64,000 nt of DNA, from contig JALAGF010004599.1 of NCBI GenBank assembly GCA_030167865.1, positions 62,001 through 126,000 on the forward strand. The letters run 5' to 3'. Origin of the DNA: Craspedostauros australis. Its lineage: Eukaryota. Each line of letters starts with the position of its first letter. Position 1 is the first letter of the stretch. The notes beneath the pieces are model-generated. The model was not told the origin of the DNA. It saw nothing but the letters and a program-made list of their open reading frames with translations, and did not search any database. This document shows, piece by piece, positions 2,371 to 19,349 of the stretch. A program made the translations under genes and the position numbers.

Positions 2371-2420
2371 GAGCAGCATTGATCAGCATTGATCAGCACT
2401 GATCAGCATTGATCAGCATT
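2371..2420. repeat. 10-bp tandem repeat (GATCAGCATT)x5 upstream of the kinesin gene
   Basis: gagcagcatt gatcagcatt gatcagcact gatcagcatt gatcagcatt, read directly from the sequence. Confidence 0.9.
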
Positions 2421-2529
2421 CACCAACGTTGACACAACAAGACAAGACAAGAAGAACCCCACAAGTTCCGAATTGCATCCACCAAGGCATCAAGTCATCA
2501 AGTCATCAATACAGAATAACGCAACGACC

Positions 2530-5500
2530 ATGAAGCTTGTTGCAACGTGGCTGAACGGCATCGGCCTGAGCGATGCAATTGGGACATTCGAAGCCGCTGG
2601 GATCGTATCGCCTTCCGCTTTGGCCGAGCTCGATGTCAACCATTTCGAGGCGCTTGGCGTTTCGGATCCCGACGACCGCAGAAAGCTCTTCTACCTCGTT
2701 CAGCGCATAAAGCTGGCGGTCGGTAAGAAGCCTACGGCACCGGAACAGCAGAGCATGGAGGAGCAGATGGATGCCATGATTGCGACCACGCTGGAAAATG
2801 GCAATGCTGCCAAACCAGCGGGATCCTTCGATAGCTCTGGCAGCAACCAGAACGTGGAGAATGAGGAGAATGGAGTGCACAAGCCACAGATACAAACGTC
2901 GGTCGCTGGACGCGCACTGAGTGGAGATGCTTCGAGCGCAACTGCCAATGCTAGTGCCAGTGGCGTTTCTGGAGTGCGTCGCAGCCGGAGGTTGGCTACG
3001 AAGAAGCAGACGCAGGCTGTGCCACCCCCACCGCCGCCGCCGCCGCCACCACCACCTTCGCGACCTGCACAAGTGGACGCAATGACAACAACGCAAACCA
3101 CGGCAACGACCATGACGATGACGGTGACGAAAGCCGTGGCCCCACGCAGCGTGTCGCTGACCAGACCCAAGGTTATGCCTTCCAAGGAAGTGCAACCCCC
3201 GTTTGCTGCATCTTCATCTTCGGCTGAAGGAGCGAGGCCGCTGGCGAGAAGATCCAGCAGACGTCTGCAGGAAAAGCAAAAACAGGAGGTTCCCGAGTCG
3301 AAATCAAAGCCGTCACCACCCCGATCTCGGTCGCTGTCCACGAACGGCCGCAGTCCCAAAAAAGCTACCAAGAACAACAGTCCTCGTCGCGCCATGAAAA
3401 AGACTGGCATGGTGTTGGGCGATGGACAGTCAGCCGATTCGAATCTTCCCCAGCTTGCGCAGAGGACGAAGATCCAGGCGCCCAGAGGACGTCGCACGGA
3501 GTCGCGCTTGCAGAATCCATCCAAGTCCATCAGGACAGGCAAACGCTTGTCGTCCATCCCATCGGAGGCCATGGCTCCGCAATCGCCACTCGTCAACCTC
3601 TCCGTCACCAAGATGGAACAGAACCTGACGCAGACCAACCAAGCCCTCAAGGCAGATCAAAACATCCACCGCGAGAAGCGCCGCTCGCGATCAAGATCCA
3701 GGGATTCGTTGGATTCGCTCCTGGCCTCGTCCTTCAGCGAGTCTGAGAACGGCTCTGAACCACAGAGTGACTCGGAACTCAGCGGTTCGGAAAGAAACAG
3801 ACCAGCGCCCACGACCAACCGGCGTCTCACATTTCCATCAGAAGTCTCCGCCGGCACCAGCTCAGTCTCAAGCGGAGATGATACCAAGAGCAGCAGCAGA
3901 CCGAGCTTGTCCAAGCGCAGAAGCCTCAGAGCACCATCTGCCAGCAGAGGAAGACGTCCCTCTCGTGCCTCCTCCGTCAGCTCCAACTCCGTCACCATCC
4001 AGGGTGGAACCATCGACGAATCCTTCAAGTCCAAAATCGAGCTCATGCGCGAGGACAACGCTGCCGAGTACGATCTGTTCGGCGCACAAGTTGACAAGCA
4101 GCAACAGTACGACATGCGCATCCGCGTGCTGGTGCGGAAGCGTCCCATCAACAAGAAGGAGATGGGCGTCACAGGTGGCATCGACATCATCCACCCGATG
4201 GATTACGGCGAGTACGGAAAGATCCTGCTCTACCAGCCCAAGACGAAGGTCGACCTGACGAAGCAGGTGGAGACGGCGCCCTTTGCCTTCGACAACGTCT
4301 TCGACGAATCGTCGACGAATGTTCAGATCTACGAACGTTCCATCCGTGGCTTGATCCCATCAGTCTTCGAAGGTCAGTTCAACTCTGTCTTTGCCTACGG
4401 ACAGACAGGTTCCGGCAAGACCTACACCATGATGGGATCCAACATCACGGGCGTCAACGCTGGCACCGCTGTTCAGGATTCGGCCAACCTCGGCCTCTAC
4501 TACCTCGCAGCCGTGGATATCTTCTCCCTCGCAGAACGCCCCGAGAACCAGCACTTCACGATCGCCGTGTCTCTCTTTGAGATCTACGGTGGCAAGCTCT
4601 ACGATCTGCTGGCAAGCCGAAAGCACGTGAAGTGCTTGGAAAACAGCAAGGGCAAGGTCTGCTTCCCCGGCCTGTCCGAGCACGCCGTGTCCTGTCCTGA
4701 CGAGCTTATGGAGCTATTCGAGCGTGGTGCCAAGAACCGTTCCACGGGCACCACATCCCGCAATGCCGACAGCAGTCGGTCCCATGCGGTCATCCAGCTG
4801 AGTCTCCGCAAGTCGCAGGGACGCAAGAAGAACGTCGAACATGGACGTCTAACATTCATCGACCTTGCCGGAAGCGAGCGTGGAGCTGACACTTCCAGCG
4901 CAAGTCGAGCCACGCGGCTAGAGGGTGCCGAGATCAACACGTCGTTGCTTGCCTTGAAGGAGGTCATCCGCGCGTTGGCAACCGGTGGTTCCATGACGCA
5001 CATTCCCTTCCGTGGCAGCAAGCTCACGCAGGTACTGAAGGATTCCTTCGTCGGCAAGAAGTCGCGTTGCTGCATGGTCGCCTGCATCTCTGCCGACATT
5101 GGCAGCTGCGAGCAGACTCTGAATACGCTACGGTACGCTGACCGAGTTAAGGAGCGCAATTCCGCGACAGGGGCGCTTGCTGCAGGATACGACATGCCCG
5201 TTCGCGTCCAGCTGGATGCCTTCAGCCCCATCAAGACGGCACCTGCGGAATCACCGGCTCGCATGACTGCCGATGATCAGATGTATGACGATTTGCGGGC
5301 CGAAGAGAATGCTCTGGCGCAGGTCATTAGCGCCGAAGAGGCGGATGACCACAGCCACACGTCTCACTCCGAGTGCAACTCCGACATGCTGAATGATCTG
5401 TTGAACAGCGATCATGGCGACATTACGGCTTCCAGCGTGGCAGCTGCTGAGGAGATGGCAACGCCAGAGAGGCCCATTGCCCCATCCCCCAGCACGAATG

Positions 5501-5853
5501 GAGGGATGACGCCAAAGCGCATCGCGTCCGAGACGTTGGTGTCGACCCACCGATCCGTGATGGCGTCCATGCTGACGATGGTCAAGCACGAAATGACGCT
5601 GGTCAACAAGGTGGATGCCGATCGGGACCGACTCGACGAGTACATCGGCGAGCTGGAGTCGCTCCAGACGACGCAGCTGTCCCTGATCACAAAACTGCAG
5701 GACACCCTCCACTCGTACGTGGCTCATGCGGAAGGAACCACCATGGTCCATGATGCCAGTGCCGTTCAGAAAGATGGACGTGGTTCACGCCGGCAGCAGT
5801 CGCGTGATGGAGGCGAGTCGGATAACGACAGCTTTGAGGATTTGAGAGATTGA
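2530..5853 (+). CDS. Kinesin-13 family motor with N-terminal SAM domain (KIF24/kinesin-13B-like)
   Basis: ATG at 2530 (MKLVATWLNGIGL...LEALGVSDPDDRRKL-type SAM domain). Long low-complexity linker. Central motor with the kinesin-13 KVD motif (KTKVDLTK), P-loop GQTGSGKT, switch I SSRSH, switch II DLAGSE and HIPFRGSKLT. C-terminal coiled coil. No intron required. Confidence 0.93.
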   Translation: MKLVATWLNGIGLSDAIGTFEAAGIVSPSALAELDVNHFEALGVSDPDDRRKLFYLVQRIKLAVGKKPTAPEQQSMEEQMDAMIATTLENGNAAKPAGSFDSSGSNQNVENEENGVHKPQIQTSVAGRALSGDASSATANASASGVSGVRRSRRLATKKQTQAVPPPPPPPPPPPPSRPAQVDAMTTTQTTATTMTMTVTKAVAPRSVSLTRPKVMPSKEVQPPFAASSSSAEGARPLARRSSRRLQEKQKQEVPESKSKPSPPRSRSLSTNGRSPKKATKNNSPRRAMKKTGMVLGDGQSADSNLPQLAQRTKIQAPRGRRTESRLQNPSKSIRTGKRLSSIPSEAMAPQSPLVNLSVTKMEQNLTQTNQALKADQNIHREKRRSRSRSRDSLDSLLASSFSESENGSEPQSDSELSGSERNRPAPTTNRRLTFPSEVSAGTSSVSSGDDTKSSSRPSLSKRRSLRAPSASRGRRPSRASSVSSNSVTIQGGTIDESFKSKIELMREDNAAEYDLFGAQVDKQQQYDMRIRVLVRKRPINKKEMGVTGGIDIIHPMDYGEYGKILLYQPKTKVDLTKQVETAPFAFDNVFDESSTNVQIYERSIRGLIPSVFEGQFNSVFAYGQTGSGKTYTMMGSNITGVNAGTAVQDSANLGLYYLAAVDIFSLAERPENQHFTIAVSLFEIYGGKLYDLLASRKHVKCLENSKGKVCFPGLSEHAVSCPDELMELFERGAKNRSTGTTSRNADSSRSHAVIQLSLRKSQGRKKNVEHGRLTFIDLAGSERGADTSSASRATRLEGAEINTSLLALKEVIRALATGGSMTHIPFRGSKLTQVLKDSFVGKKSRCCMVACISADIGSCEQTLNTLRYADRVKERNSATGALAAGYDMPVRVQLDAFSPIKTAPAESPARMTADDQMYDDLRAEENALAQVISAEEADDHSHTSHSECNSDMLNDLLNSDHGDITASSVAAAEEMATPERPIAPSPSTNGGMTPKRIASETLVSTHRSVMASMLTMVKHEMTLVNKVDADRDRLDEYIGELESLQTTQLSLITKLQDTLHSYVAHAEGTTMVHDASAVQKDGRGSRRQQSRDGGESDNDSFEDLRD

Positions 5854-6444
5854 TTTGGAATCATGAACACACAATAATATAATACAGCATGGTGCACAAT
5901 AGAATGCAGCACAAAGCAAATATAGCAGTCGTTGCAATCATCTACTCGTAGAGTGCATAAGTATGCAACCGCCAACGATGAGAGTGCATGGTACTCTTGC
6001 ATGATACCATGCTCGACAAACATTGGGACTGTTGCGGATGACGATGAGGTGAAGAATAAGACGAAGTAAGTATGCATGATGGAACCCTCTCTCGCTCTCT
6101 AGAGAGAAAGAGCACTATTTTGATGTAGACAGTTCGCGCCAAAATAGTACTGGATAAGTCTCATTTGGTCACAAGGCATCTTTCCCAAATTTTGGGTCCC
6201 AACGCAAGAGGATGACCACAACAACGATTGTGTTCGCTTTTGGTCTCTTTCTTCCTCGCATTCATCCCTTGTTGGTGGTGATGGGTTCTTGATGGCATCA
6301 ACTGCGCCAGTGGATGATTTTCGACAGACAGCGAGCTTCATTGTTCAATCGGATCACATCATCTGTAGCACAGCACAACGCAACTCAATCCACCAAGCAG
6401 CACAATACAGCAGTACAACAATACAACAGTAAAATAGCTGTACG

Positions 6445-7599
6445 ATGTCCACCAATGAGAGCCTCCGAAAACGCAAGCTGGTTCATGCGCTGCGACGGCC
6501 AAGATGCCTCTTGGTTCTGATCTTCATGCTGCTGCTGTGCAGCACGATGGCACTAATTTTCATCTTTTGGACCCCATCCGAGCTTCTGGGGGTCCTGTCG
6601 CGTGACAGCTCATCGTCGAGCGATGGGGAGACAGCAGACGCAGCCGAAGACAACAGCGACCTGATTCCGAAGGCACCAAACTGCACATCAACGACACGGT
6701 ACCAGCTGCAGTCGAGGTACTGTTCGTGGGATCGTTCTCTGGAGACATGCTACCGCATGTTCGTGCCCGTGCTGCAGGAGAAGCCATCATGGGTGTTTTT
6801 GGGTGGCTACGACATGTCGCAGGTCGTGCATTACATCTCCTTGCAATGGCCCCACGAATCTCTCAACATCAAGAGCAGACGGGATCCCTGCAAGAACATC
6901 GAGTACTACAAGATCCCGCGACGGGTACCTTGGACGGCACCGAATGCAACCTTGGGAGAGGGCCCCGTGGGATATGGGAAGGATCACCCGTACTGCACGG
7001 ATTCGCAACGAGTTTGGAACGTCCTGTTGGATGTGCCCACGCAGCAGGACAAGTATGTGGAGTATCTGGTGGTGGAATATGCGAGGGACGTTTCCATACC
7101 AAGTCACGTCACGAAGACGACGCAAGAAACGGCCGCACTATACCTGTCCAACAAGAGCCCGGAGGTTTGCGTGGCCAACACCGGTCTGCACGATGCTTCC
7201 ATAGTGGATCCCAAGACGGGCGAGCCGCTTCCAATCGATGTTTACATTCACAACGTCGATGCCTACATCACCCTGCTCGCAAGGACGTGCCGCCATGTTG
7301 TCTGGGTCGGCCTGTCCGCCATCATGGAGGATGATTCCAAGACGTTGGCTGGCACGGGTGGAAGCAGCATAATCCACGGCAACGCCACCAACGTGACGAA
7401 CTGCCAACTGCAGGAGTACAACAACGCCGTGTACGGCTTGGTGGAGCTGCGTGGACGAGACAACGTGTACATTGTGGATGTTTGGGACAAGAGTCTGACG
7501 ACTTCGCACGTGGACAAGTTCTACATGACACCAAAATACTACTCCACTCTGGCACGTCTCTTTGCCACCTTGATGGCCGGACCACGTGCTGCATCATAA
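6445..7599 (+). CDS. Type II membrane protein with SGNH/PC-esterase-like luminal domain (catalytic residues appear substituted)
   Basis: Basic N-terminus followed by a single TM (CLLVLIFMLLLCSTMALIFIFW), a stem, and a block III-like motif VCVANTGLHD. WVFLGGY stands where GDS is expected and DKFY where DxxH is expected. Confidence 0.65.
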   Translation: MSTNESLRKRKLVHALRRPRCLLVLIFMLLLCSTMALIFIFWTPSELLGVLSRDSSSSSDGETADAAEDNSDLIPKAPNCTSTTRYQLQSRYCSWDRSLETCYRMFVPVLQEKPSWVFLGGYDMSQVVHYISLQWPHESLNIKSRRDPCKNIEYYKIPRRVPWTAPNATLGEGPVGYGKDHPYCTDSQRVWNVLLDVPTQQDKYVEYLVVEYARDVSIPSHVTKTTQETAALYLSNKSPEVCVANTGLHDASIVDPKTGEPLPIDVYIHNVDAYITLLARTCRHVVWVGLSAIMEDDSKTLAGTGGSSIIHGNATNVTNCQLQEYNNAVYGLVELRGRDNVYIVDVWDKSLTTSHVDKFYMTPKYYSTLARLFATLMAGPRAAS

Positions 7600-7980: not shown

Positions 7981-9620
7981 TTAGACGTTGAAGCGGAAAA
8001 GAATGACATCGCCCTCCTGGACGATGTACTCCTTGCCTTCGCTTCTGAGAACCCCGGCTTCCTTGGCCGCCTTCTCGCTGCCCGTCTCGATCAGATCGTC
8101 GTAGGATATCGTCTCAGCGCGGATGAATCCACGCTCGAAGTCGTTGTGGATGACGCCGGCAGCTTTGGGAGCGGTCCATCCCTTTTTGATAGTCCAGGCA
8201 CGCGACTCGGTGGGGCCGCTGGTGTAGTAGGTCTGGAGCTGCAGCAGATCGTACGCTTCACGGATGAGCGCGCGCAATCCGCTGTCGTTGAGGCCAACAC
8301 CGAGCGACTCCAGGAACTCCAATCGGTCCTCAAGCTCGAGCTCGACCAGTTCGGCTTCGACGGCGGCCGAGACCAGGACGATCTTGGCGTTCTCTGTCTC
8401 CGCGATGCTCTTCAGCTTGTCCACCATCTCATTTCCGGTAGCAAGATCACCATCAGCAACGTTGGCAGCGTAGATCATGGGCTTGCGTGTCAGCAGACCG
8501 AGCGATTTGAGGGTCTGCTCCTCATCCTCATCCAGATCAACGTACCTGGCAGGCTTGCTCTCCTCCAGGGCCTCCAGCACCTTCTCCAGGGCGCGCTTCT
8601 CAATGGGATCGGCGTTCTGGCGTTCCTTCCGGACACGGTACAGGCGCTTCTCGACTTGGACAAGATCGGCCAGGGCGAGCTCCAGGTTGATCAGTTCGCT
8701 GTCGCGAACGGGATCGACGGTGCCATCAACGTGGATGACATCGTCGTCCTCAAAGCACCGCACGACGTGCACGATGCAATCGGCCTGGCGAATGGAATTC
8801 AGGAACTGATTTCCCAAGCCTTCTCCCTGTGAGGCACCCTTGATCAGACCGGCGACGTCGACAAATTCCAGGGTGGTTGGCACGGACTTCTCGGACTTGT
8901 TGAGTTCTGTGAGCTTGTCCAATCTTGGATCTGGGACCGTCACGATACCGACATTCGCTTCGATGGTGCAGAATGGCTGCAAGTTGTCCGGAATAACGTC
9001 GAAATTGGAAACAGCGGTTCCAGAAATATTCATGTAGTATTTGGTATCAAGGAAGGGAAGGGAAAGGGATTGTTGTCAGTGTGTGTTGAACGTATAACAG
9101 GCACAGAGCACAGTGGGTCGACTTGGCCAGCTACGTGGATAATGAAGATGCATTGAAATGCGCAAACTCAGCACGTGCACAATTCCATTCATTGATTGTT
9201 CTCGACGCACGCAAATGCTCCACTTTCATCGTGGATCATATCAAACGTGACAGGGCATGGAGTGCATGGCAGCGCGATAGCCCTCGAAGGCTAGTGCAGA
9301 GTATTCTGCTCTACTCTGTATGCTCACGTTGCACGTACGTAGTTTCCCATCTCCGCACTCTGGGTCTCCGTGAGAGCATTGAAGAGGGTGGACTTGCCGA
9401 CGTTTGGCAATCCAACAATGGCGGTCTGCAGCTTCATGGACATGGTGGAGGCAGAGTAGGAGCGTCCGAAGCTCGCTGTGGCTCCTCCCGTGAAGGAGGA
9501 ACGCGCCGAGAATGCGGCGCACCTGCGGGTTGTCACGGAGAGCATGCCGAGGATCAGCATGATGGCAGAACTTGTGGCGATGGGCGATGCTTGCTTGGAT
9601 GCGGCCTTGAAAGTCTTCAT
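7981..9620 (-). CDS. ychF: YchF/OLA1 Obg-family ATPase/GTPase, probably plastid-targeted
   Basis: Exons 9339-9620 and 7981-8976; intron 8977-9338 (gtacgt...ttgcag). The joined protein reads GLPNVGKSTLFNALT...GNY|PFCTIEANVG, DVAGLIKGASQGEGLGNQFL, AAGVIHNDFERGFIRAE and a TGS end EGKEYIVQEGDVILFRFNV. N-terminal signal-like stretch followed by CAA-F and a Ser/Thr/Arg-rich transit peptide. Confidence 0.95.
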
Positions 9621-10377: not shown

Positions 10378-12634
10378 CTAGATCAATGGTGTGTTGCCTG
10401 GGGCACTGCGGGATCGGGCAAGACCGATACCAGAGTTCTGTCGGCTGACGTTGATGAGGTCGTGTCCTATCTTCGGCCTCCATGGTGTGTCGAGGGCGTT
10501 GAGCTCGCGCTGGGTGAGGCAGAGAATGATGGAGAGGACGAGGACCAGCAGGATACTTCCGACCAAAGCCGCAAGCTCTACGAGCGGGATGCCGAACTTC
10601 TTGTACTCGTCGAGGTCGCGCCAGTTGGAGAGGTCGAAGCTTGGGCTGGAGATTGTGATGTCGCCACCTTCCTCGTACTTGCCGGAACGGATCTCTGCGA
10701 TGAAGTTGCACGAGTTCTCCTCCTGGGTGATCTGCGAGGACGTCTTGTACATGTTCTGCCACGCGTTGAGGTTGACGTTGCAGGTTCCGGCTTCCTCATA
10801 CAGTCTCTGGCACATCTCCACGGCGCCGTCTTCCTCGTCGGCCTGCTCCTCTTCGTCATTGTCCTCGTTGTAGTCCTGATTGTATCCCTCGAGCTTGTCC
10901 TGTGGATGTCAAGCGTGCCAAGGTGTCAGTGGAAAGATAACATACGGACAGACATGTTAGTGACGAAGTCGCATACAATGGGGGCGATTTTGACATGAGT
11001 ACACGTCCAATGGGAAGGCAACTACAATGAGTAACCTTCGAACAGGCGCCGCAAGCATGATATAAGGTACACACGCATGGCACACATGGATGCACGCATG
11101 CGTCGTTGCACAGTACCACTTCTCAACGCTTTGCGTTGATGCACTCGTTATCACGTACCTGTCCGTTGCAGTAGATGCATTCTTTGGGGAAGAGGAACAT
11201 GCTGTCGAAGTCATCGTCACGGCCGAGGATCTGTCCGATGGAGTACTCCTCGCCCATGTAGGTGCCGCAGTTCTCATCGGCAAAGACACCGAGAGTGATG
11301 GTGAAGTGATCCGATCCGCAGTGTGGAGCGAAGTAGAAGATGCGTCCGTACTGGTTCTCATACTTCATGCATTCGTCGTAGTTGATCTCGAAGTCGTTGC
11401 CGTTGTTGTTGTTGTTGGCGTCGTCGCCCTCGTCTTCTTCCTCGTAGTAGCAGTAGTTGCTGTACTCGTCGCAGATGGCGGCCTTGTCTTCGTCGCAGCC
11501 GTAGTCCTCAAAGTAGGCCTGGACGCACTCGTCGTCGGAGTCAGCGGGGTACCATTGGCCGTCGGCTCCGATAACACCTGGTCCCATGTAGGCGTACTCC
11601 TCCTGAAGTTCCTCGAAGGCATCCTGGTCTCCCTCGACCCATCCGCCATTCTCGTCGTAGTAACCGTACGCGGCCTGCGCCATCTGGATGGCATTCTGGT
11701 CGTAGTTGTTGTTGTAGCTGTTGTAGTTGTAATCGTTCCCGGCGGCGGCGTCATCGTTTCCGTTGTTGTTCTGGTCCAAGTGTCGGTTGCGTCGCACGCG
11801 GTTGCCGTTGTAGTTGCCGTTTCCGTTGTAATAGTTGTTGGCGGCCATGTTGCCTGCGTAGTTGTAGTAGTTGTAGTCGCCGTTCGCCTGCATGTCCTCG
11901 ATCTGCTGCTGGTACTTCTCCTCGAAGCACTCCTCGAGGGCGGCCAAGCCGTTGGCCTGGTTGCTCTCGGAGCACGTCTCGCAGTACTCGCAGTACTCAT
12001 TGTAGCGCTCCTCGTAGTACTCGCTGATGGCCTCGAGGTAGTCTCCCATCTGCACGAGGTACTGCCCGTAGTTCTGGCCGCAGCCGATGACCGTGTAGGA
12101 GCTGCAGCTGTCCACGGGGCAGAGGCTGAAGACGGCGTAGCTGTTGGTGACGATGGCACTGCCTCCGTTGTCGTTGCCTTCGCGTGCCGCCTCCTCATCG
12201 TACTCCTGGATGGAGGAGCAGCCGGTGTACTTGAATGCGTAGTTGGCCAGGTTGATGAGGCCATTCTCGTTGTCGTAGTACTCGTTGTACCAGTTTCCGT
12301 TGTTGTAGTCGTCATCCCCGCCGTTGACGTTGTCCGCGTTGTCGTAGTTGTACTGGCCGTACTCCTGGTAGTCCTCGCCGTTTCCCTGGTCCAAACGGCG
12401 GGCCTTGCTTAGGATGCGCTTGTTCAATCGCACCTGTCTGCTGCTGGCGCTCTTGCTTTTGCCGTTGCTCGCGGCCGCCTTCTTCGAGTCTGGGGCACCG
12501 CCGTTCATGGCTGCCATGAACTGCTGCTGGAGGCGACGCTGCTCGAACGCGCTGTGCACACCAGGACGTGTGCTGCTGGCCTCAGCCGCAAGGGCTCCGC
12601 CGAGCACGGCAAGCAAGCCAACCACGAACTTCAT
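10378..12634 (-). CDS. Silicanin-like type I membrane protein (paralog A), ~665 aa
   Basis: Exons 11159-12634 and 10378-10899; intron 10900-11158 (gtacgt...ccacag). Signal peptide MKFVVGLLAVLGGALA and RRL pro-sites. N/Y/D/Q-rich luminal region with Cys blocks (YAFKYTGC, FSLCPVDSC..GC..YGQYLV, YCEYCETC, APHC, FADENC, ECIYC, CQRLYEEAGTC, CNFI). Single C-terminal TM and short tail. Architecture matches diatom silicanins. Confidence 0.8.
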
Positions 12635-13707
12635 CTTCAGAGCAATGCAAGTCAAGTCAATTCAAGTCAAGTGAAGCAATGGGTGGTGTTTGTGTTGGTG
12701 GGTGTCGATGATTGGATTTCTGAATGCAATCTCCAACTTTCTCACAATGGAGTGAATTCGTTTGCAATTGTTGTTGTGATGGTACGGTTGGATGGTGCAG
12801 TTTGGTGGATGAGGGAGGAGACAGTCAGCTTGGTGCTCTGCCGCTACTCCACTGGTATCTGCCCGTATCTGCTCGACACAACTTCCAACAGGAGGAACAC
12901 CAACAACAAGTGATGACGAAAACGACGATGGCGGCGACGATTTACCACTCTCGCGGTGTCGCACATGTAATCACCCACAGTATCTTTTAGGTTCGGTTGA
13001 GCCATCAACGGTCAAAAATGTTTATTTTCATATTCATGTCCGAATGATAATATAAACTCTCCCAATAACGAATTACGGTTAAACTGGACGTTATTTCTCG
13101 CTCAATGGACGATGATGCTCTGGCATGGCATGTCTGGGAACTTCCATCCAAAATTGCGCCTGTTTCTTTGCCAACTGACAACACTGATGCCCTCGGCCAC
13201 GCAGGAACATTGAGTGTTCCACGAATCTCAATGACATCCCCGCTTCCGCACCCGGTTGGTACTGGTAAAAAACTGAGATTAACTGGCGAGCGCCCGTTAT
13301 ACTCGTGTTCTATTGAGACAGCAAGATGGATGGATGAGAGTCAGATGCGCAATGGTGTGCGACTCGACTTGGCAATCATACAGCTTCCTGCTACTTCATG
13401 TGATGGTCGTCCTATTTGTACTTTTACTTGGTTTGTCTCGCTCTCTAGTTTTACATGCTGATGATGTGGTGTCCAATGTGGAATGACAGATCCAATCTTC
13501 TTCGTGCTGTATGTAGCTCTGCTGTCGCTGTGCTGTTGCGCTGATGTGTCGTGTTGTGCATGATTTCATGATTGGGTGACAACCGAAGGTACATCCATCT
13601 TGCACAGTCGCGTCAATCATGAAAGCTGAGGAAGATGCTCTCGCTCCGTTGCGTCTGTCTTTCTCTGTACTCGTGGAGTGCCTGTGCCTCCGTGTCTCTC
13701 GCTCTCT

Positions 13708-15728
13708 CTAGGTCATCATTCCGCGAGATTCGGTGCTGAGGGAGCGGTTCTGCAGAATGCCTGATTGCATTCTTGACATGCGTGTGGAGGCCAGGTGGCC
13801 CATGCCCTTGCCTGCGTTGGAGGCACCGGCCATGCGAGGGTTCCAAATGATCTTGCGCTGTGATATTGAGCGGTGCAGGTAGCAGGAGTACAGGACAAGG
13901 AAGGCAACCAGGAGGATGGAGCCAGCCAGGGCCAACTTCTGGACTTGGGTCATTTCGGACACGGTGGATGGAGTTGGGAAGTAGGACAGCCAGCTCTCTG
14001 GATCGATCACGATCTCGCCCTTCTCGTTGTAGCTCTTCGTCATCAGACTTTCGATGAAGTCACAGATGGCATCTTCCTGATCCTCTTGCGCGTACGACTG
14101 TGCATGTCCCATGCCACACACACGCACACACACATCAAGCAAGCATTTTGGTACACAAGTGGAATGATGGCATTGCGACGCATTGTTGAAGGCGTACATA
14201 TATCGCGTCCACGGCACCGTAAGCACGCCACGTAGATCACAGAAAAGTGAGGGAAAGCAGAGGGAGGAGAGGAGCGGTCAGATTGGCATAGAGTACAGCA
14301 TCATGTTTTGAGAAAAGGGATGCATGCAGGAAAAAGGTGGAACGCAACGCGAAAGCTGCTGCAACCGTTTGCACTTACCTGGTAGGATCCTTCGGCTTCG
14401 TTGCCCATGTAACGGTTGCACTTGGCACTCTCGTCGTACAACTCTCCACAGATCCCAGAAATGACGCTGTCATCATCTTGCTGCTCCAGGCTGAACCCGT
14501 CCTCGGCCAGGCACGAGATGCAACTATCGGTGTAGTACGCCTTCATGTAGCCATCGTCCAGGTCCAATCCGGTGTACTGGCTGATGGTGTTGATGCTGTC
14601 CAGGTATTCGTCGCAATTCTCATCGCTGTAAATGGCAATACCGATGGTGTGGCCATCAGCACGGCAATGCGGGCCCATGTAACCGACCTGGTTGCCCATG
14701 TTGAATTCCGCGCACTGGAAGAAGTCGACGAAGTCCTGGGCATTAGGCGAGTAGTCCTTGCACGCTGTCTTCCACATGCTGCAGGCATCGCCGTAGTTGC
14801 AATCCTCGTCGTCCGCAACCTGATCCGCCTGGTCGTCTTGCTGTTGGTAGTACTCGTCGTAATTGTAGTTGACGGCATCGTCGCCGTTTGCGGCGTTGGC
14901 ATCGTCGTCATTGTTGGCATCGTCGTCATTGTTGTAGTATTGCAGGCGACGCAGGCGGTTGTTCCCATTGCCATTGGCATCGTCGTTGCCATTGCCGTCG
15001 TCGTTTTGGGCGTTGTCGTCTCCGTTGGCTGCGTTGGCTGCGTTGGCATCGTCGTTGTTGGCGTTGGCATCATCACCATTGCCGTCGTCAGTTTGGTAGT
15101 AATTCTGCTGCTTGCTGCAGTAGTAGCAAGTCTCGCAGTAGGTTGCGTATTCAGCGAAGTAGTACGTTGACATCGCCTCGAGATACTCTTCCATGGAGAT
15201 CATGTAGTCGCCGAATCCAGCATTGCATCCGTACTCGTAGTAACTTGAGCACGTTTCCCGTGGGCACAGACGGAACGTCACAAAACGGTCCATTCCCAGG
15301 ACCGTGTCCGTGTCACCATCCTGTGCCAAATCATCGCTGAAGGTGTGGATGTTCTGGCAACCAAGGTACTTCAAGGCGAAGTCGCTGATCTGGATGCCAT
15401 ACTGCTCCATCTGGTCATCGTCAGCAGCATAGTTGTTCCCGTTGTTGTTTGCTGCGTCATCGTTGTTGTTGTAGTTGTAGTACTGATCCAGCCTTCGCGT
15501 CCCCTCGATGGGCTTGGCGATGGAGAGGAGGCTGTCGAAGAACTTCTGCTTGCGCCTCGAAGCATCTGTGGCTTCCTCCATCTTGCGAATGAATTCATGC
15601 TTTGCGCTGCCTTTCGATCCTGACGAAAAGAATGTTGTCCGCCGCGAAGTTGGAGCTGCGTCGACCTTCTCTGCGGTCACGGAGACGGCCACAGCCAATA
15701 GACTTCCCAATGCCACTGACAACCTCAT
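13708..15728 (-). CDS. Silicanin-like type I membrane protein (paralog B), ~579 aa
   Basis: Exons 14379-15728 and 13708-14097; intron 14098-14378 (gtaagt...gcacag). Signal peptide MRLSVALGSLLAVAVSVTA, TRRLDQ, FALKYLGC, FRLCPRETC..GC..FGDYMI, YCETCYYC, GPHC, YSDENC, SCISC, CGELYDESAKC, CDFI, and TM LALAGSILLVAFLVLYSCYL. Collinear with paralog A. Confidence 0.82.
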
Positions 15729-16634
15729 CTTGGGATCCAATTCAATGTTCTTTTGTGTTTGGTGGGCAGTGCCGTTGTGATTGCGCAACTGATGCTGTCT
15801 TTGTCTTCCGTTCTCGATTTGATGAGCTCCTTTTGTTTCAAGCGTCCAGCCGTTCTGCCGTTTGTGAATGTGGATGCTTCTCCTTTTCCTTCGTTCGCAG
15901 ACCACAAGCCTTTCTTTTGAACACCTTGACTCTACTCCCATGCCCTCTGCCGTTCTTGATCGCTCACCTTCGCCCCGCAACCAACCAACAACTTGCGACA
16001 ACTTGTTCTCCTGTTTTGACTTTCCATCTGACGCCACGGTTCACAAAACAACGGATGCTTGGAAATGGTTCGTGGGAACCGCGTGTTGTGTGGTTGGTGT
16101 TGTTCTTTGCGGTTATGTGACGCTCAAGTGCATGGGCACGCGTTTAGTATAATTGTATTCATGCCTGAATATAATTTTAATACACTTTCAAATCTGACCA
16201 CCAATTCATCGCCAACTGCCATCTCAATACGATTCAATCGATCAAACCCAAACACCTTTTGCCCAATCGTGTCCATGAATCATCGAACCATCCGATCACA
16301 AGTCTGTCATGCACGTTTGGGGGTGGTACACAACCAACCAAAACAAGAAACGAACACGATCGAAAACGCTCCACAACAACACTGATGTTCGAAGAAGACA
16401 TCATCCTTGCCACATTCTGGTCCTGTTGCTCCTGTTCCTGAGGTGCCAAGGCAGAGAGTGTGAACTCACAGAAACGTATCGTATTCATAACAAAGTGCAG
16501 ACCTTCAGCTACACAGCTCGTACAATTGAACATTGCATCCACGGATATCATCCGAGGTCCCAAAACCACACAGATTCGAGTACAGCAGAGAGAAGGAGCA
16601 GCATTGACAGCACGGCTCGCAGCTCACAGACAGG

Positions 16635-17720
16635 ATGCCAAAGATCTTCCAACCCATCGGCCAGGTGCGGCTGACGAATGTCGCGGTGGTCCGCATGAAT
16701 GTGAAGGGCAAGAGGTTCGAGATTGCATGCTACCGCAACAAGGTGGTTGACTACCGTCAGGGTTTGGAGAAGGACCTGTCGGAGGTCCTCCAGACGGACC
16801 GCATCTTCGCCAACGTCAGCAAGGGGCAGTTCGCCAATGCGAAGGACCTGCAGAAGTGCTTCGGAACGAGGGACGAGATGGAGATCGCGAAGAACATCCT
16901 CGAGCAGGGCCAGTTTCAGGTCTCGGACCGCGAGCGCAGCCAGCAGCTGGAGAAGACGACGGCGCAGATCGCCGAGTGGGTCTCCAAGAACTGCGTGCAC
17001 CCAACCTCCGAACGACCCTACACCATCCCGCAGCTCAAGCACGCCATGCAGCAGGCCAACTTCTCTGTACACCCCACCAAACCCCTCAAACGCCAGTGCC
17101 TCGACAGTGTCAAGATTCTGCAGCGGGCCATCCCCATCCGACGCGCCAGGATGGAGCTGCAGCTCTTCGTGCCGTCCGATCAGAAGATGGCCCTGCAGAA
17201 GATCCTGGACGACACGGACACGACCGCCACGATCGAGGCCTCCGACGCGCAATCGCAGTGCAAGATCCTGGTCGATCCCAGCATGTACCGCACGATGAAT
17301 GAGAAGCTGCAACCGATCGGCGGAAGGATCGAGGTCTTGCAACAGGTGGTCACGAAGCAGGGCGACAATGATCTGGAGATGGAGTTGGAGGTCCGGGGTA
17401 CGGCACAAGGTGGTAACGCAGATGACTTGAAGGTGGCCGGGCTCTCCATCAGTTCAGATGATGCGCAGACGAATAAAAGCAAAAGCAAAAACAAAGGCAA
17501 GGCCAACAAGCAGCCAGCATCTTCGTCCGGTGGGACCAATGAAGGTCGCAAAAGCTGCAACACATGTGGTGGTTTCTTCGGTTCAGCGGCCCAGTACAGG
17601 TCGCACTTCAAAAGTGACTGGCACAAGTTCAATCAGAAGCTCAAAATGAAGAACTGTCCGACTGTCAGCGAGGAGGAATTCATGATCTGCGATTCCGATG
17701 CCTTGCTCGGTGGTCTGTGA
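16635..17720 (+). CDS. SBDS: Ribosome maturation protein SBDS/Sdo1 with C-terminal C2H2 zinc finger
   Basis: Hallmark FQP..QVRLTNVAVVRM...GKRFEIACYRNKV, EVLQTDRIFANVSKG and HPTSERPY motifs. C-terminal CNTC...YRSHFKSDWHKFNQKLK zinc finger. Confidence 0.96.
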   Translation: MPKIFQPIGQVRLTNVAVVRMNVKGKRFEIACYRNKVVDYRQGLEKDLSEVLQTDRIFANVSKGQFANAKDLQKCFGTRDEMEIAKNILEQGQFQVSDRERSQQLEKTTAQIAEWVSKNCVHPTSERPYTIPQLKHAMQQANFSVHPTKPLKRQCLDSVKILQRAIPIRRARMELQLFVPSDQKMALQKILDDTDTTATIEASDAQSQCKILVDPSMYRTMNEKLQPIGGRIEVLQQVVTKQGDNDLEMELEVRGTAQGGNADDLKVAGLSISSDDAQTNKSKSKNKGKANKQPASSSGGTNEGRKSCNTCGGFFGSAAQYRSHFKSDWHKFNQKLKMKNCPTVSEEEFMICDSDALLGGL

Positions 17721-18419
17721 AGAAGTACTGGTAGAGTAGACTACTTACTATGATATTATATACTCCTTGGTGGAGTATGGGCTATGGTTCGTGGAATCTA
17801 CCCTCCCTCTCTGTTCTACCACGCCTGCAAGTATAAGGACTATACGATGAGAGTACGCCTCATACCTACCTCTCCAGTCCAAACCCTGATGTAAATCGTC
17901 TCCGACTAAAGGCATTCATCAAAAGTATCGCAGTATCTGTGAAACCATGTCCACAAACTTCAAAGACTTGTGTGAGCCATCAACCCACACAACCTCCTCC
18001 GTCGTCGTTGTCATCATCGCACCATCGCCATCGTTCTCTTGATTGCGCCATGATTGGTGTAGTTGCGGCGCATCTGTTCTGTAAATATTTGCTTGCCAAA
18101 CTATTCTGTCTGTCCACCGTACGAGTACGTACACGATTGCACCACCCAACACTGCCTCCTTTGTTGAACCTCAGCCGATGACGATGGGAATTCGCCGCTG
18201 GTTCTCAAACCACAACCATCTCCCTCTTCCATTTCATTCCTGACAACGCCACAGGAACAGATCTGACACCACACTTGGACGAGCTGCTTGGACTCATAAT
18301 AGAATACTTGACAACTATTGAACGATTCTGGAACACGATTCTGCTTGTACCGCGCAATTATTCTACACAAGTACTCGACCATACCCCAACAGCAAGTCCA
18401 ATAGCTACCACCGGACAGC

Positions 18420-19349
18420 ATGACAGAAAGCAAGCAGACCTCGGGACACTCATTGTCCAACATGACGCGAGAGCACTCCGAGTTCTCCACCTTGCTGCCG
18501 CAGAACCTCGGACAGATCATCGACGGCTGGATTCATGATGACATGCCATCCTTCGATGTTGGCGGCATGGTGGTGGGAGACTCCCAGAAGCAGGCCAAGC
18601 TCCTCATGAAGTCCTCCGGTGTGCTGGCGGGAGTTCCCTTCGTGGACACCGTCTTCACGAGATTGGGTTGCAAGGTGGAATGGCAGGACGACGTCGCCAA
18701 GGAGGGCAAGGCGCAGCAGCTCGCGGAGGGTCAGAAGCTCCATCTGGCCACCGTCACGGGACCTGCCCACTTGATTCTGCGCGGAGAACGCACCGCGCTC
18801 AACACGCTGAGCCGCTGTTCGGGTGTGGCGACGCTGTCGCGCAAGGCGAAGTCCAAGGCAGACGAAGTGGAATGGAAGGGGTGGGTGGCCGGAACCCGCA
18901 AGACGACGCCGGGTTTCCGGGTTGTAGAGAAGTACGGTCTTCTGGTGGGCGGTGTGGCGACGCACAGGCTGGATCTGTCGCAGATGGTCATGCTCAAGGA
19001 CAACCACGTCTGGGCCTGCGGTTCCATCACCAAGGCGGTGCAGCTGGCCAGGAAGGCGTCGGGGTTCTCTCAGAAGATCGAGGTGGAATGCCAATCCCTG
19101 GAGGAAGCCTGCGAGGCCGCTGAGGCTGGTGCGGACATCGTCATGCTGGACAACTTTGAGCCCGAGAAGCTGAAGGCGGATGCTAAGGTCTTCAAGGAGC
19201 GCTTCCCTCACGTGCTTGTTGAGGCAAGCGGCGGGATTACCGTCGACACTATGGCAGGGTACCTCAGCGAGCATGTGGACGTCGTGTCGCAGGGCAGCCT
19301 GACACAGGGATATCCCGCATTGGATTTCAGTCTTAAAATAGTCCATTAG
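18420..19349 (+). CDS. QPRT: Quinolinate phosphoribosyltransferase (nicotinate-nucleotide pyrophosphorylase)
   Basis: GERTALNTL..SGVAT, GTRKTTPGFR..EKY, HRLDLS.MVMLKDNH, KIEVEC, DIVMLDNF and EASGGIT motifs. Confidence 0.97.
   Translation: MTESKQTSGHSLSNMTREHSEFSTLLPQNLGQIIDGWIHDDMPSFDVGGMVVGDSQKQAKLLMKSSGVLAGVPFVDTVFTRLGCKVEWQDDVAKEGKAQQLAEGQKLHLATVTGPAHLILRGERTALNTLSRCSGVATLSRKAKSKADEVEWKGWVAGTRKTTPGFRVVEKYGLLVGGVATHRLDLSQMVMLKDNHVWACGSITKAVQLARKASGFSQKIEVECQSLEEACEAAEAGADIVMLDNFEPEKLKADAKVFKERFPHVLVEASGGITVDTMAGYLSEHVDVVSQGSLTQGYPALDFSLKIVH

Follow-up and report, generated by a model that had tools for sequence, protein, structure and literature searches.

Do two adjacent genes of the diatom Craspedostauros australis share a conserved motif in the cytosolic tails of their predicted products, and if so, what could be its role? 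This question is raised by a locus on contig JALAGF010004599.1 (NCBI GenBank assembly GCA_030167865.1, positions 62,001 to 126,000 of the forward strand); this whole stretch of 64,000 nucleotides is called the window, and coordinates given without a locus name refer to it. The genes, designated A and B, form a tandem pair on the minus strand, with two exons each and B upstream of A. A preliminary description, made from the letters alone, had claimed that one short linear motif, including tandem RxxS sites, is conserved in both tails. The motif is real, old and family-specific, and it occurs in a known protein family, the SiMat7-like (silicanin-family) proteins; its role we infer from sequence, predicted topology, conservation and family specificity.

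The Tail Motif and Its Conservation

The minus strand encodes the tails of A and B exactly as the preliminary description quotes them. Tail A has a basic W-x-P element (WRPK, 10471..10482) and the core motif VSRQNSGIGLARSRSAP (10399..10449), with S648, S655 and S657 as candidate phosphorylation sites, the second site fitting RSxSxP; tail B contains the W-x-P element WNPR (13834..13845) and the core motif MSRMQSGILQNRSLS (13735..13779), with the candidate sites S562, S569 and S571. The refined consensus reads [ILVM]-x-R-x-x-S-G-I-x-[M/hydrophobic]-x-R-S-x-S, following the basic W-x-P element, and holds two overlapping basophilic kinase sites, nine residues apart. Direct comparison of tail A with tail B gave a local score of 27, which was reached by 2165 of 20000 shuffles and is not significant; the likeness of the two sequences alone is thus no evidence and was not used as support.

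The C-terminal exons of A and B, combined into a profile, matched 242 proteins at E values up to 0.001 among 1.84 billion representatives; family counts were made on the best 150 of these 242 matches, 149 of which have a transmembrane (TM) helix by hydropathy. The core, taken as R..SG[IV], was present in 121 of the 149 TM-bearing relatives, and W.P in 104. Since the tail was part of this first profile, which biases it toward carriers, the relatives were rescored on luminal and TM columns only; 61 proteins (without A, B and one TM-less fragment) scored above the list cut-off in this tail-blind comparison, and the core was found in 45 of them. Three of the 16 tail-blind relatives without the core have short tails of the Sin1 type. 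The core is kept in most of these relatives and is therefore more than a chance match, despite the non-significant score of the A-B pair; the claim of a conserved linear motif with tandem RxxS sites, retained in relatives, is borne out.

With the other motif anchors held fixed, position 0 was serine in 109 of 109 cases, +1 glycine in 109 of 111, +2 isoleucine in 106 of 109, -3 arginine in 107 of 112 and +6 arginine in 109 of 110. The spacer from SGI to RS, which had been assumed to vary from two to five residues, is fixed at three (109 of 111), and the search expression originally proposed, W.P[KR].{5,30}SR..SGI.{2,5}RS.S, matches just 26 of the 149 relatives. The distance from W to the core varies (median 22, range 3–60), and the first 20 tail residues have a median net charge of +5 (n = 101). 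Codons for the serine at position 0 were TCN in 34 and AGY in three of 37 DNA copies, i.e., serine is kept across both codon families. Carriers span centric, araphid and raphid diatoms; those with a name, counting the mates in 90% clusters, belong to Coscinodiscus, Trieres, Attheya, Grammatophora, Nitzschia and Fistulifera. None from T. pseudonana or P. tricornutum was among the 30 proteins covered by three cluster look-ups.

Clean losses of the core, with W-x-P and often the terminal element of the tail kept, were seen between close relatives (P0011 versus P0016; P0062 versus P0041; P0088, P0094, P0150), which thus provide natural pairs with and without the core. The tail of P0103 contains the SGI..MGR unit twice.

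Family Specificity and History

A profile built from 23 tails only (E up to 10, 8000 candidates scored) matched 104 proteins; all 80 not previously seen possess the luminal domain of the SiMat7-like family, and 79 of these a clear TM helix. This supports the expectation that motif matches would be single-pass proteins of the type found in the silica deposition vesicle (SDV). Metagenome contigs yielded 43 matches to RQNSGIV[MLI]G, of which 33 were confirmed as relatives, and 32 of these 33 loci match the luminal profile. Motif carriers outside the SiMat7-like family were not seen in the tail-profile and metagenome searches, which favour close word matches, and a search of PDB sequences with the tail profile gave 0 matches at E up to 10.

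The genome of Craspedostauros australis contains at least 13 family-like genes; four of them match weakly, and the last exons of two were inferred. The core was found in two of the 13, A and B only, a lower bound which derives from homology searches and not from a genome-wide motif scan; queries from three other carrier branches again had A and B as best genome matches. As the two genes are adjacent, a single deletion could remove the motif from the genome. Several candidates in the same genome were discarded: the weak matches L008/L017 and L009 are simple repeats, no family gene is present at the matches on C249 and C5331, and a DNA motif pattern was too loose (1079 matches versus 1249 in the control).

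A quick, unrooted IQ-TREE tree was calculated without the tails, on the luminal and TM portions alone (102 of 132 rows, 144 columns; short fragments and one mis-called row were left out), and many of its forks are open. Gene A falls into a branch of 15 rows (SH-aLRT 99) and B into another branch; carriers occur in most branches of a group of 94 rows (support 93), which excludes eight short-tailed rows. This unrooted tree suggests one old origin of the motif, which would have been followed by several losses. On the metagenome contig L072 (5839-13282) a B-type gene and then two A-type genes follow on the same strand, which is the gene order found here; the other genes of L072 did not match genes of the window. 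Carrier gene clusters were also observed in other diatoms, namely a tandem pair of the YYMS type (L087:5776-9924) and a convergent pair (L079:239-3151). The loci L042 (G000:C5797) and L049 (G000:C3307) encode type I membrane proteins that are more distant, acidic and rich in Cys, two of them in tandem; their tails end in KKxPL[IM]-like stretches and lack the core.

The likeness of the tails could be ascribed to chance or to neutral carry-over from a recent tandem duplication, considering that the genes are adjacent, that the pairwise tail score is not significant and that the first profile search, containing the tail, favoured carriers. The family data refute this explanation, to which hardly any probability can be assigned: A and B have only 36% identity and stand in separate branches of the tail-free tree, the motif is present in the tail-blind matches and in distant diatoms, and the order of B-type and A-type genes recurs on L072.

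Gene Structure and Family Membership

Gene A encodes 665 aa (12634-11159 and 10899-10378, minus strand, spliced at GT-AG). Its exon 1 (11159..12634) comprises the hydrophobic N-terminus, RxL sites and a luminal domain rich in N, D, E and Y and containing Cys, and the 3' part is identical to the database protein P0001; after a GT-AG intron of 259 nt (10900..11158), exon 2 (10378..10899) encodes the end of the luminal domain, the predicted TM helix (10519..10575; mean Kyte-Doolittle value 2.99 over 19 aa) and a cytosolic tail of 46 aa up to the stop codon (10378-10380). Gene B encodes 579 aa (15728-14379 and 14097-13708, minus strand, also spliced at GT-AG), with a hydrophobic N-terminus, RRL sites and an N/D-rich, Cys-containing luminal domain in exon 1 (14379..15728), the 3' part of which is identical to P0003, a GT-AG intron of 281 nt (14098..14378), and the end of the luminal domain, the predicted TM helix (13879..13935; mean value 2.2 over 19 aa) and a tail of 56 aa in exon 2 (13708..14097; stop codon 13708-13710).

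The last exons, from which the motif is read, are supported by transcripts. Both are letter-identical (100%) to P0001 (A), a UniRef protein labelled Craspedostauros australis, and P0003 (B), a EukProt protein from an MMETSP transcriptome, which cross the respective splice junctions; in addition, contigs of run X1 skip the predicted introns to the nucleotide (259 and 281 nt). The RNA type of this run is a guess, and it is possibly the same data set as that of P0001 and P0003 and maybe not independent.

A and B are SiMat7-like type I membrane proteins as defined in the available text of PMC5501833, because they share topology, homology to a Sin1-like gene and 14 common Cys columns. Both N-termini are hydrophobic over about 15–19 residues by inspection; RRL occurs at positions 33 and 79 in A and at 78 in B, and the luminal parts contain 20 (A) and 18 (B) Cys residues, as a count and not a position-by-position match to the at least eight conserved ones of the family. 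Luminal composition is 14–17% N/Q and 19% D/E, with no long Ser tract. Hydropathy indicates a single C-terminal TM helix with a cytosolic tail in both proteins. In an AlphaFold2 model of the relative P0050 (16-row alignment) the TM helix was confident and the tail had low pLDDT values of about 43–56, which fits the expectation for a linear motif. Pfam gave no family above cut-off for the four exons and no match for two full-length relatives, and the ESM Atlas contained unnamed diatom clusters only.

Exon 2 of A matches the Sin1-like gene of this genome (G000:C9, on another contig) at E 6.4e-10, and the Sin1-like protein has Cys in common with both A and B in 14 columns. This gene bears the heptapeptide GGQKFAL before the TM helix and lacks the core motif; A and B do not have GGQKFAL, which is present in some proteins among the family-profile matches. 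Of the 18 conserved Cys of the Sin1 type, 15 (A) and 14 (B) are common to the local Sin1-like protein. Thus, A and B are not Sin1 orthologues as defined in the available parts of PMC5525289, having no GGQKFAL, only part of the 18 conserved Cys and long tails. The designation "silicanin-like" given earlier holds for SiMat7-like relatives with a homologous luminal domain; it does not extend to Sin1 orthologues, and tails of the Sin1 type are without the motif. From the family, A and B are probably located in the SDV.

A Possible Docking Site

The reading which we tentatively prefer, at somewhat less than an even chance, is that the core is a shared, phospho-regulated docking site for an adaptor on putatively disordered tails. 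The basic juxtamembrane stretch with W-x-P would keep the beginning of the tail on the membrane, and a cytosolic kinase of the CaMK/CDPK/SnRK group could phosphorylate the core during valve formation. A common adaptor recognising the near-invariant S-G-I...R-S stretch would then bind or be released, a 14-3-3 protein being the likely candidate in the A-type branch. This step would set the time and place at which A and B form clusters, undergo retrieval or shed their tails, and hence where the acidic luminal domains act on silica.

CDPK and CaMK enzymes have preferences close to the consensus for SnRK1. Among 128 carriers, the first site has a hydrophobic residue at -5 in 114 and R or K at -3 in 123; the full pattern hydrophobic-x-R-x-x-S-x-x-x-hydrophobic, corresponding to the SnRK1 substrate consensus with hydrophobic -5, basic -3 and hydrophobic +4 (available text of PMC5387080), was found in 79. 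The second site has S or T at +9 in 103 carriers. The +4 residue of site 1 is the -5 residue of site 2, and this double use would explain the fixed spacing. The proposal of a basophilic-kinase-type site stands well for site 1 of A, where V, R and L fit completely, and in part for site 1 of B, where M and R fit and +4 is Q. The mode I consensus for 14-3-3 binding is R-S-x-pS-x-P. RSxSxP is present in A and absent in B, and RSx[ST]xP occurs in 15 of 128 carriers; the suggested 14-3-3-type site is therefore plausible for the A type, but not in general. Bidentate binding of 14-3-3 was discarded, the gap of nine residues being probably too short.

The valve-SDV proteome of T. pseudonana, according to the available text of PMC9894196, comprises 39 proteins, including nine SiMat7-like proteins, three dAnks, subunits of adaptor protein complexes (AP) and clathrin, and actin. 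Two kinases are listed, Tp789 (calcium-dependent) and Tp37592 (CaM-kinase-like), neither with a predicted signal peptide or TM helix, and luminal silaffins were proposed as their substrates; cytosolic tails would, by inference, be topologically better substrates for both. One 14-3-3 protein appears in the wider list of 1,132 proteins of that paper, and one 14-3-3 locus was found in the genome of Craspedostauros australis.

Several points weigh against a phospho-regulated site. Phosphorylation data on such tails were not found in the literature searched. Threonine never replaces the serine at position 0, and a kinase site by itself would not need G, I and the spacing to be so strict; by sequence, these features fit a phosphorylation-independent binding epitope equally well. 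Serine at +7 (113 of 128) is better kept than Ser/Thr at +9, RSx[ST]xP is rare, RxxS is common in basic disordered tails, and the core is dispensable in some branches, as the 16 tail-blind relatives without it show. The nine SiMat7-like proteins of the SDV proteome are putative carriers of the motif by their family label. The gene model of Tp37592 (26.5 kDa) is possibly incomplete, and the SDV fraction was impure. The invariant Ser, the near-invariant G-I and the better conservation at +7 than at +9 point to a specific binding partner.

Such a partner could act without phosphorylation. The core may be a docking epitope for a diatom-specific adaptor, e.g., dAnk2 or dAnk3, in which case the missing "dAnk receptors" would be the SiMat7-like proteins with long tails; we consider this possible, but unlikely. 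The near-invariant S-G-I and R at fixed spacing are in line with it, the available text of PMC9894196 postulates SDV transmembrane receptors with dAnk-binding cytosolic domains, and dAnk2/3 are reported there to be widespread in diatoms, as is the motif. Three dAnk-like ankyrin proteins are encoded in this genome, one of them dAnk3-like by eye against the printed sequence (L101:781-3018, G000:C738) and two by divergent neighbours (L098 and L099, G000:C485). However, the two-site fit to a basophilic kinase consensus would then be a coincidence, and a genetic hint in PMC9894196 (available text) ties dAnk2 to Sin1, whose tail type lacks the motif. A complex prediction for tail A and the dAnk3-like ankyrin domain scored 0.15 versus a mark of 0.34, which is evidence neither way. 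DNA patterns for dAnks gave no match in this genome at first; a looser one gave 106 versus 165 in the control, and three of 30 fetched loci were ankyrin genes. Of other known ligand types, a class II SH3 ligand was rejected (PW.P.R in only 38 of 150), and the consensuses of the tankyrase-type ankyrin motif and the LC8 motif do not fit.

The extreme C-termini are kept branch by branch (P0001-P0150; L013, L014, L015, L040, L043) as PLI/PLL, YYMS or G-x-hydrophobic-A; 31 of the 121 carriers end in xL[ILV], 16 are YYMS-like, 39 have G-hydrophobic-A/T/S and 35 other ends. Tail A has the dileucine-like PLI typical of one branch (10381..10389, minus strand), an end found in 23 of 129 anchored tails. 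The G-x-hydrophobic-A end is common to carriers and short Sin1-type tails (..GLSNQGGALA, ..NLSESTGVAA), so that a second and older signal may lie at the tail end in this family; tags of GFP at the C-terminus could mask such a conserved signal. Core and ends (PLI, YYMS or G-x-hydrophobic-A) could together make the tail mainly a trafficking signal (AP-1/AP-2/clathrin, for sorting to or retrieval from the SDV); the conserved, branch-specific ends as well as AP-1 beta, an AP medium subunit, clathrin, Arf, Rab and a v-SNARE in the valve-SDV proteome (PMC9894196, available text) speak for it. Against this, the residue four places before the PLI of A is not acidic, and core-less family members have similar ends, so that sorting may rest on the ends alone. 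The core is also unlike the known sorting consensuses YxxPhi and [DE]xxxL[LI], and altogether a trafficking signal seems rather improbable.

It is very unlikely that the core is a protease site or phospho-degron by which the tail is cleaved or degraded after silica deposition, since Sin1 is processed although tails of its type lack the motif, and the core was not found to resemble any named degron or protease site. Little probability is also given to a tail that binds lipids or other tails directly, for membrane shaping or self-association and with no protein partner: the basic juxtamembrane stretch with Trp and the low-confidence, probably disordered tail of the model would suit it, but an invariant S-G-I at fixed spacing is not usually needed for lipids, and the distance from W to the core is widely variable.

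A wider version of the preferred reading, that of a phospho-regulated docking site, would make the motif the handle that has long been postulated on the cytosolic side of the SDV membrane, a pan-diatom, calcium-kinase-switched docking site on most long SiMat7-like proteins, positioning silica-shaping domains via dAnks, 14-3-3 or a cytoskeletal linker; this we regard as doubtful. If true, the choice of paralogues responding to the switch would be tuned by branch-specific ends and by the core having been lost repeatedly, which would help to set species-specific wall patterns. How silica is patterned by the cytosol across the SDV membrane is a standing question; the Sin1 tail was reported to be without known motif (PMC5525289, available text), and receptors for the pattern-controlling dAnk proteins are still being sought (PMC9894196, available text). 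A near-invariant motif of 15 residues, confined to a single branch of the principal family of SDV membrane proteins, offers exact residues to mutate and a bait peptide.

Other Genes of the Window

At lower coordinates than the pair, on the plus strand, a kinesin with an N-terminal SAM domain is encoded (2413-5853), by its KVD stretch probably a kinesin-13, followed by a frame of 388 aa (6433-7599) that carries a hydrophobic anchor at its N-terminus and matches nothing in Pfam at E 0.01. The minus strand carries an intron-split YchF/OLA1 GTPase gene (7981-9620) with an N-terminal extension which by eye resembles a plastid-targeting presequence. On the other side, genes for the SBDS ribosome maturation factor (16608-17720, plus strand) and quinolinate phosphoribosyltransferase (18405-19349, plus strand) are ordinary neighbours, not common to L072.

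Comparison with Known Systems

A description of the tail motif was not found in the literature searched, most subscription papers, theses and alignments in images being outside reach. It is not described in the available texts of PMC5501833, PMC5525289, PMC9894196, PMC5647440, PMC11151724, PMC9650480, PMC13652820 and PMC6599040, nor in those of bioRxiv 2020.11.23.393678, 2022.09.09.507052 and 2021.09.18.460806.

The closest likeness is to the SiMat7-like family of Brembu et al. 2017 (PMC5501833), which, as far as its text was available, is divided into four subfamilies and shares with A and B the hydrophobic N-terminus, the RxL site, the Cys-rich acidic luminal domain, one C-terminal TM helix and a cytosolic tail. 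Its members have already been proposed as mediators to the cytoskeleton via cytosolic adaptors; a family linking the SDV lumen to such adaptors is therefore in print, while the candidate motif for that link appears new. The tail is only called "short" there, with no motif in the available text and supplement text, whereas a considerable share of the family has tails of 45–60 aa with a near-invariant core. Sin1 (Kotzsch et al. 2017, PMC5525289, available text) has a homologous luminal domain and the same topology as A and B, but differs by its tail of 20 aa without known motifs and by GGQKFAL.

SAP1-3 (Tesson et al. 2017, PMC5647440, available text) are also SDV membrane proteins of type I, in which a cytoplasmic segment is conserved and was proposed as a binding site for proteins of the cytoplasm; they are small (17–40 kDa), Ser-rich and distinct from Sin1, and their segment of 28 aa follows directly after the TM helix. 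Neither A (665 aa) nor B (579 aa) has a Ser-rich luminal region or such a size, no SAP-like protein was among the 80 new tail-only matches, and the tails are set apart from those of SAPs by description, not by alignment, so that a faint likeness is possible. Ligands of 14-3-3 of mode I resemble the A-type branch in RSxSxP and differ in that the +2 Pro is rare among carriers (15 of 128). Sites of basophilic kinases (SnRK1/AMPK, CDPK, CaMK) have in common with the core the hydrophobic -5, Arg at -3 and hydrophobic +4 around Ser; unlike the core, a generic kinase consensus requires neither two overlapping sites set nine residues apart nor an invariant G-I.

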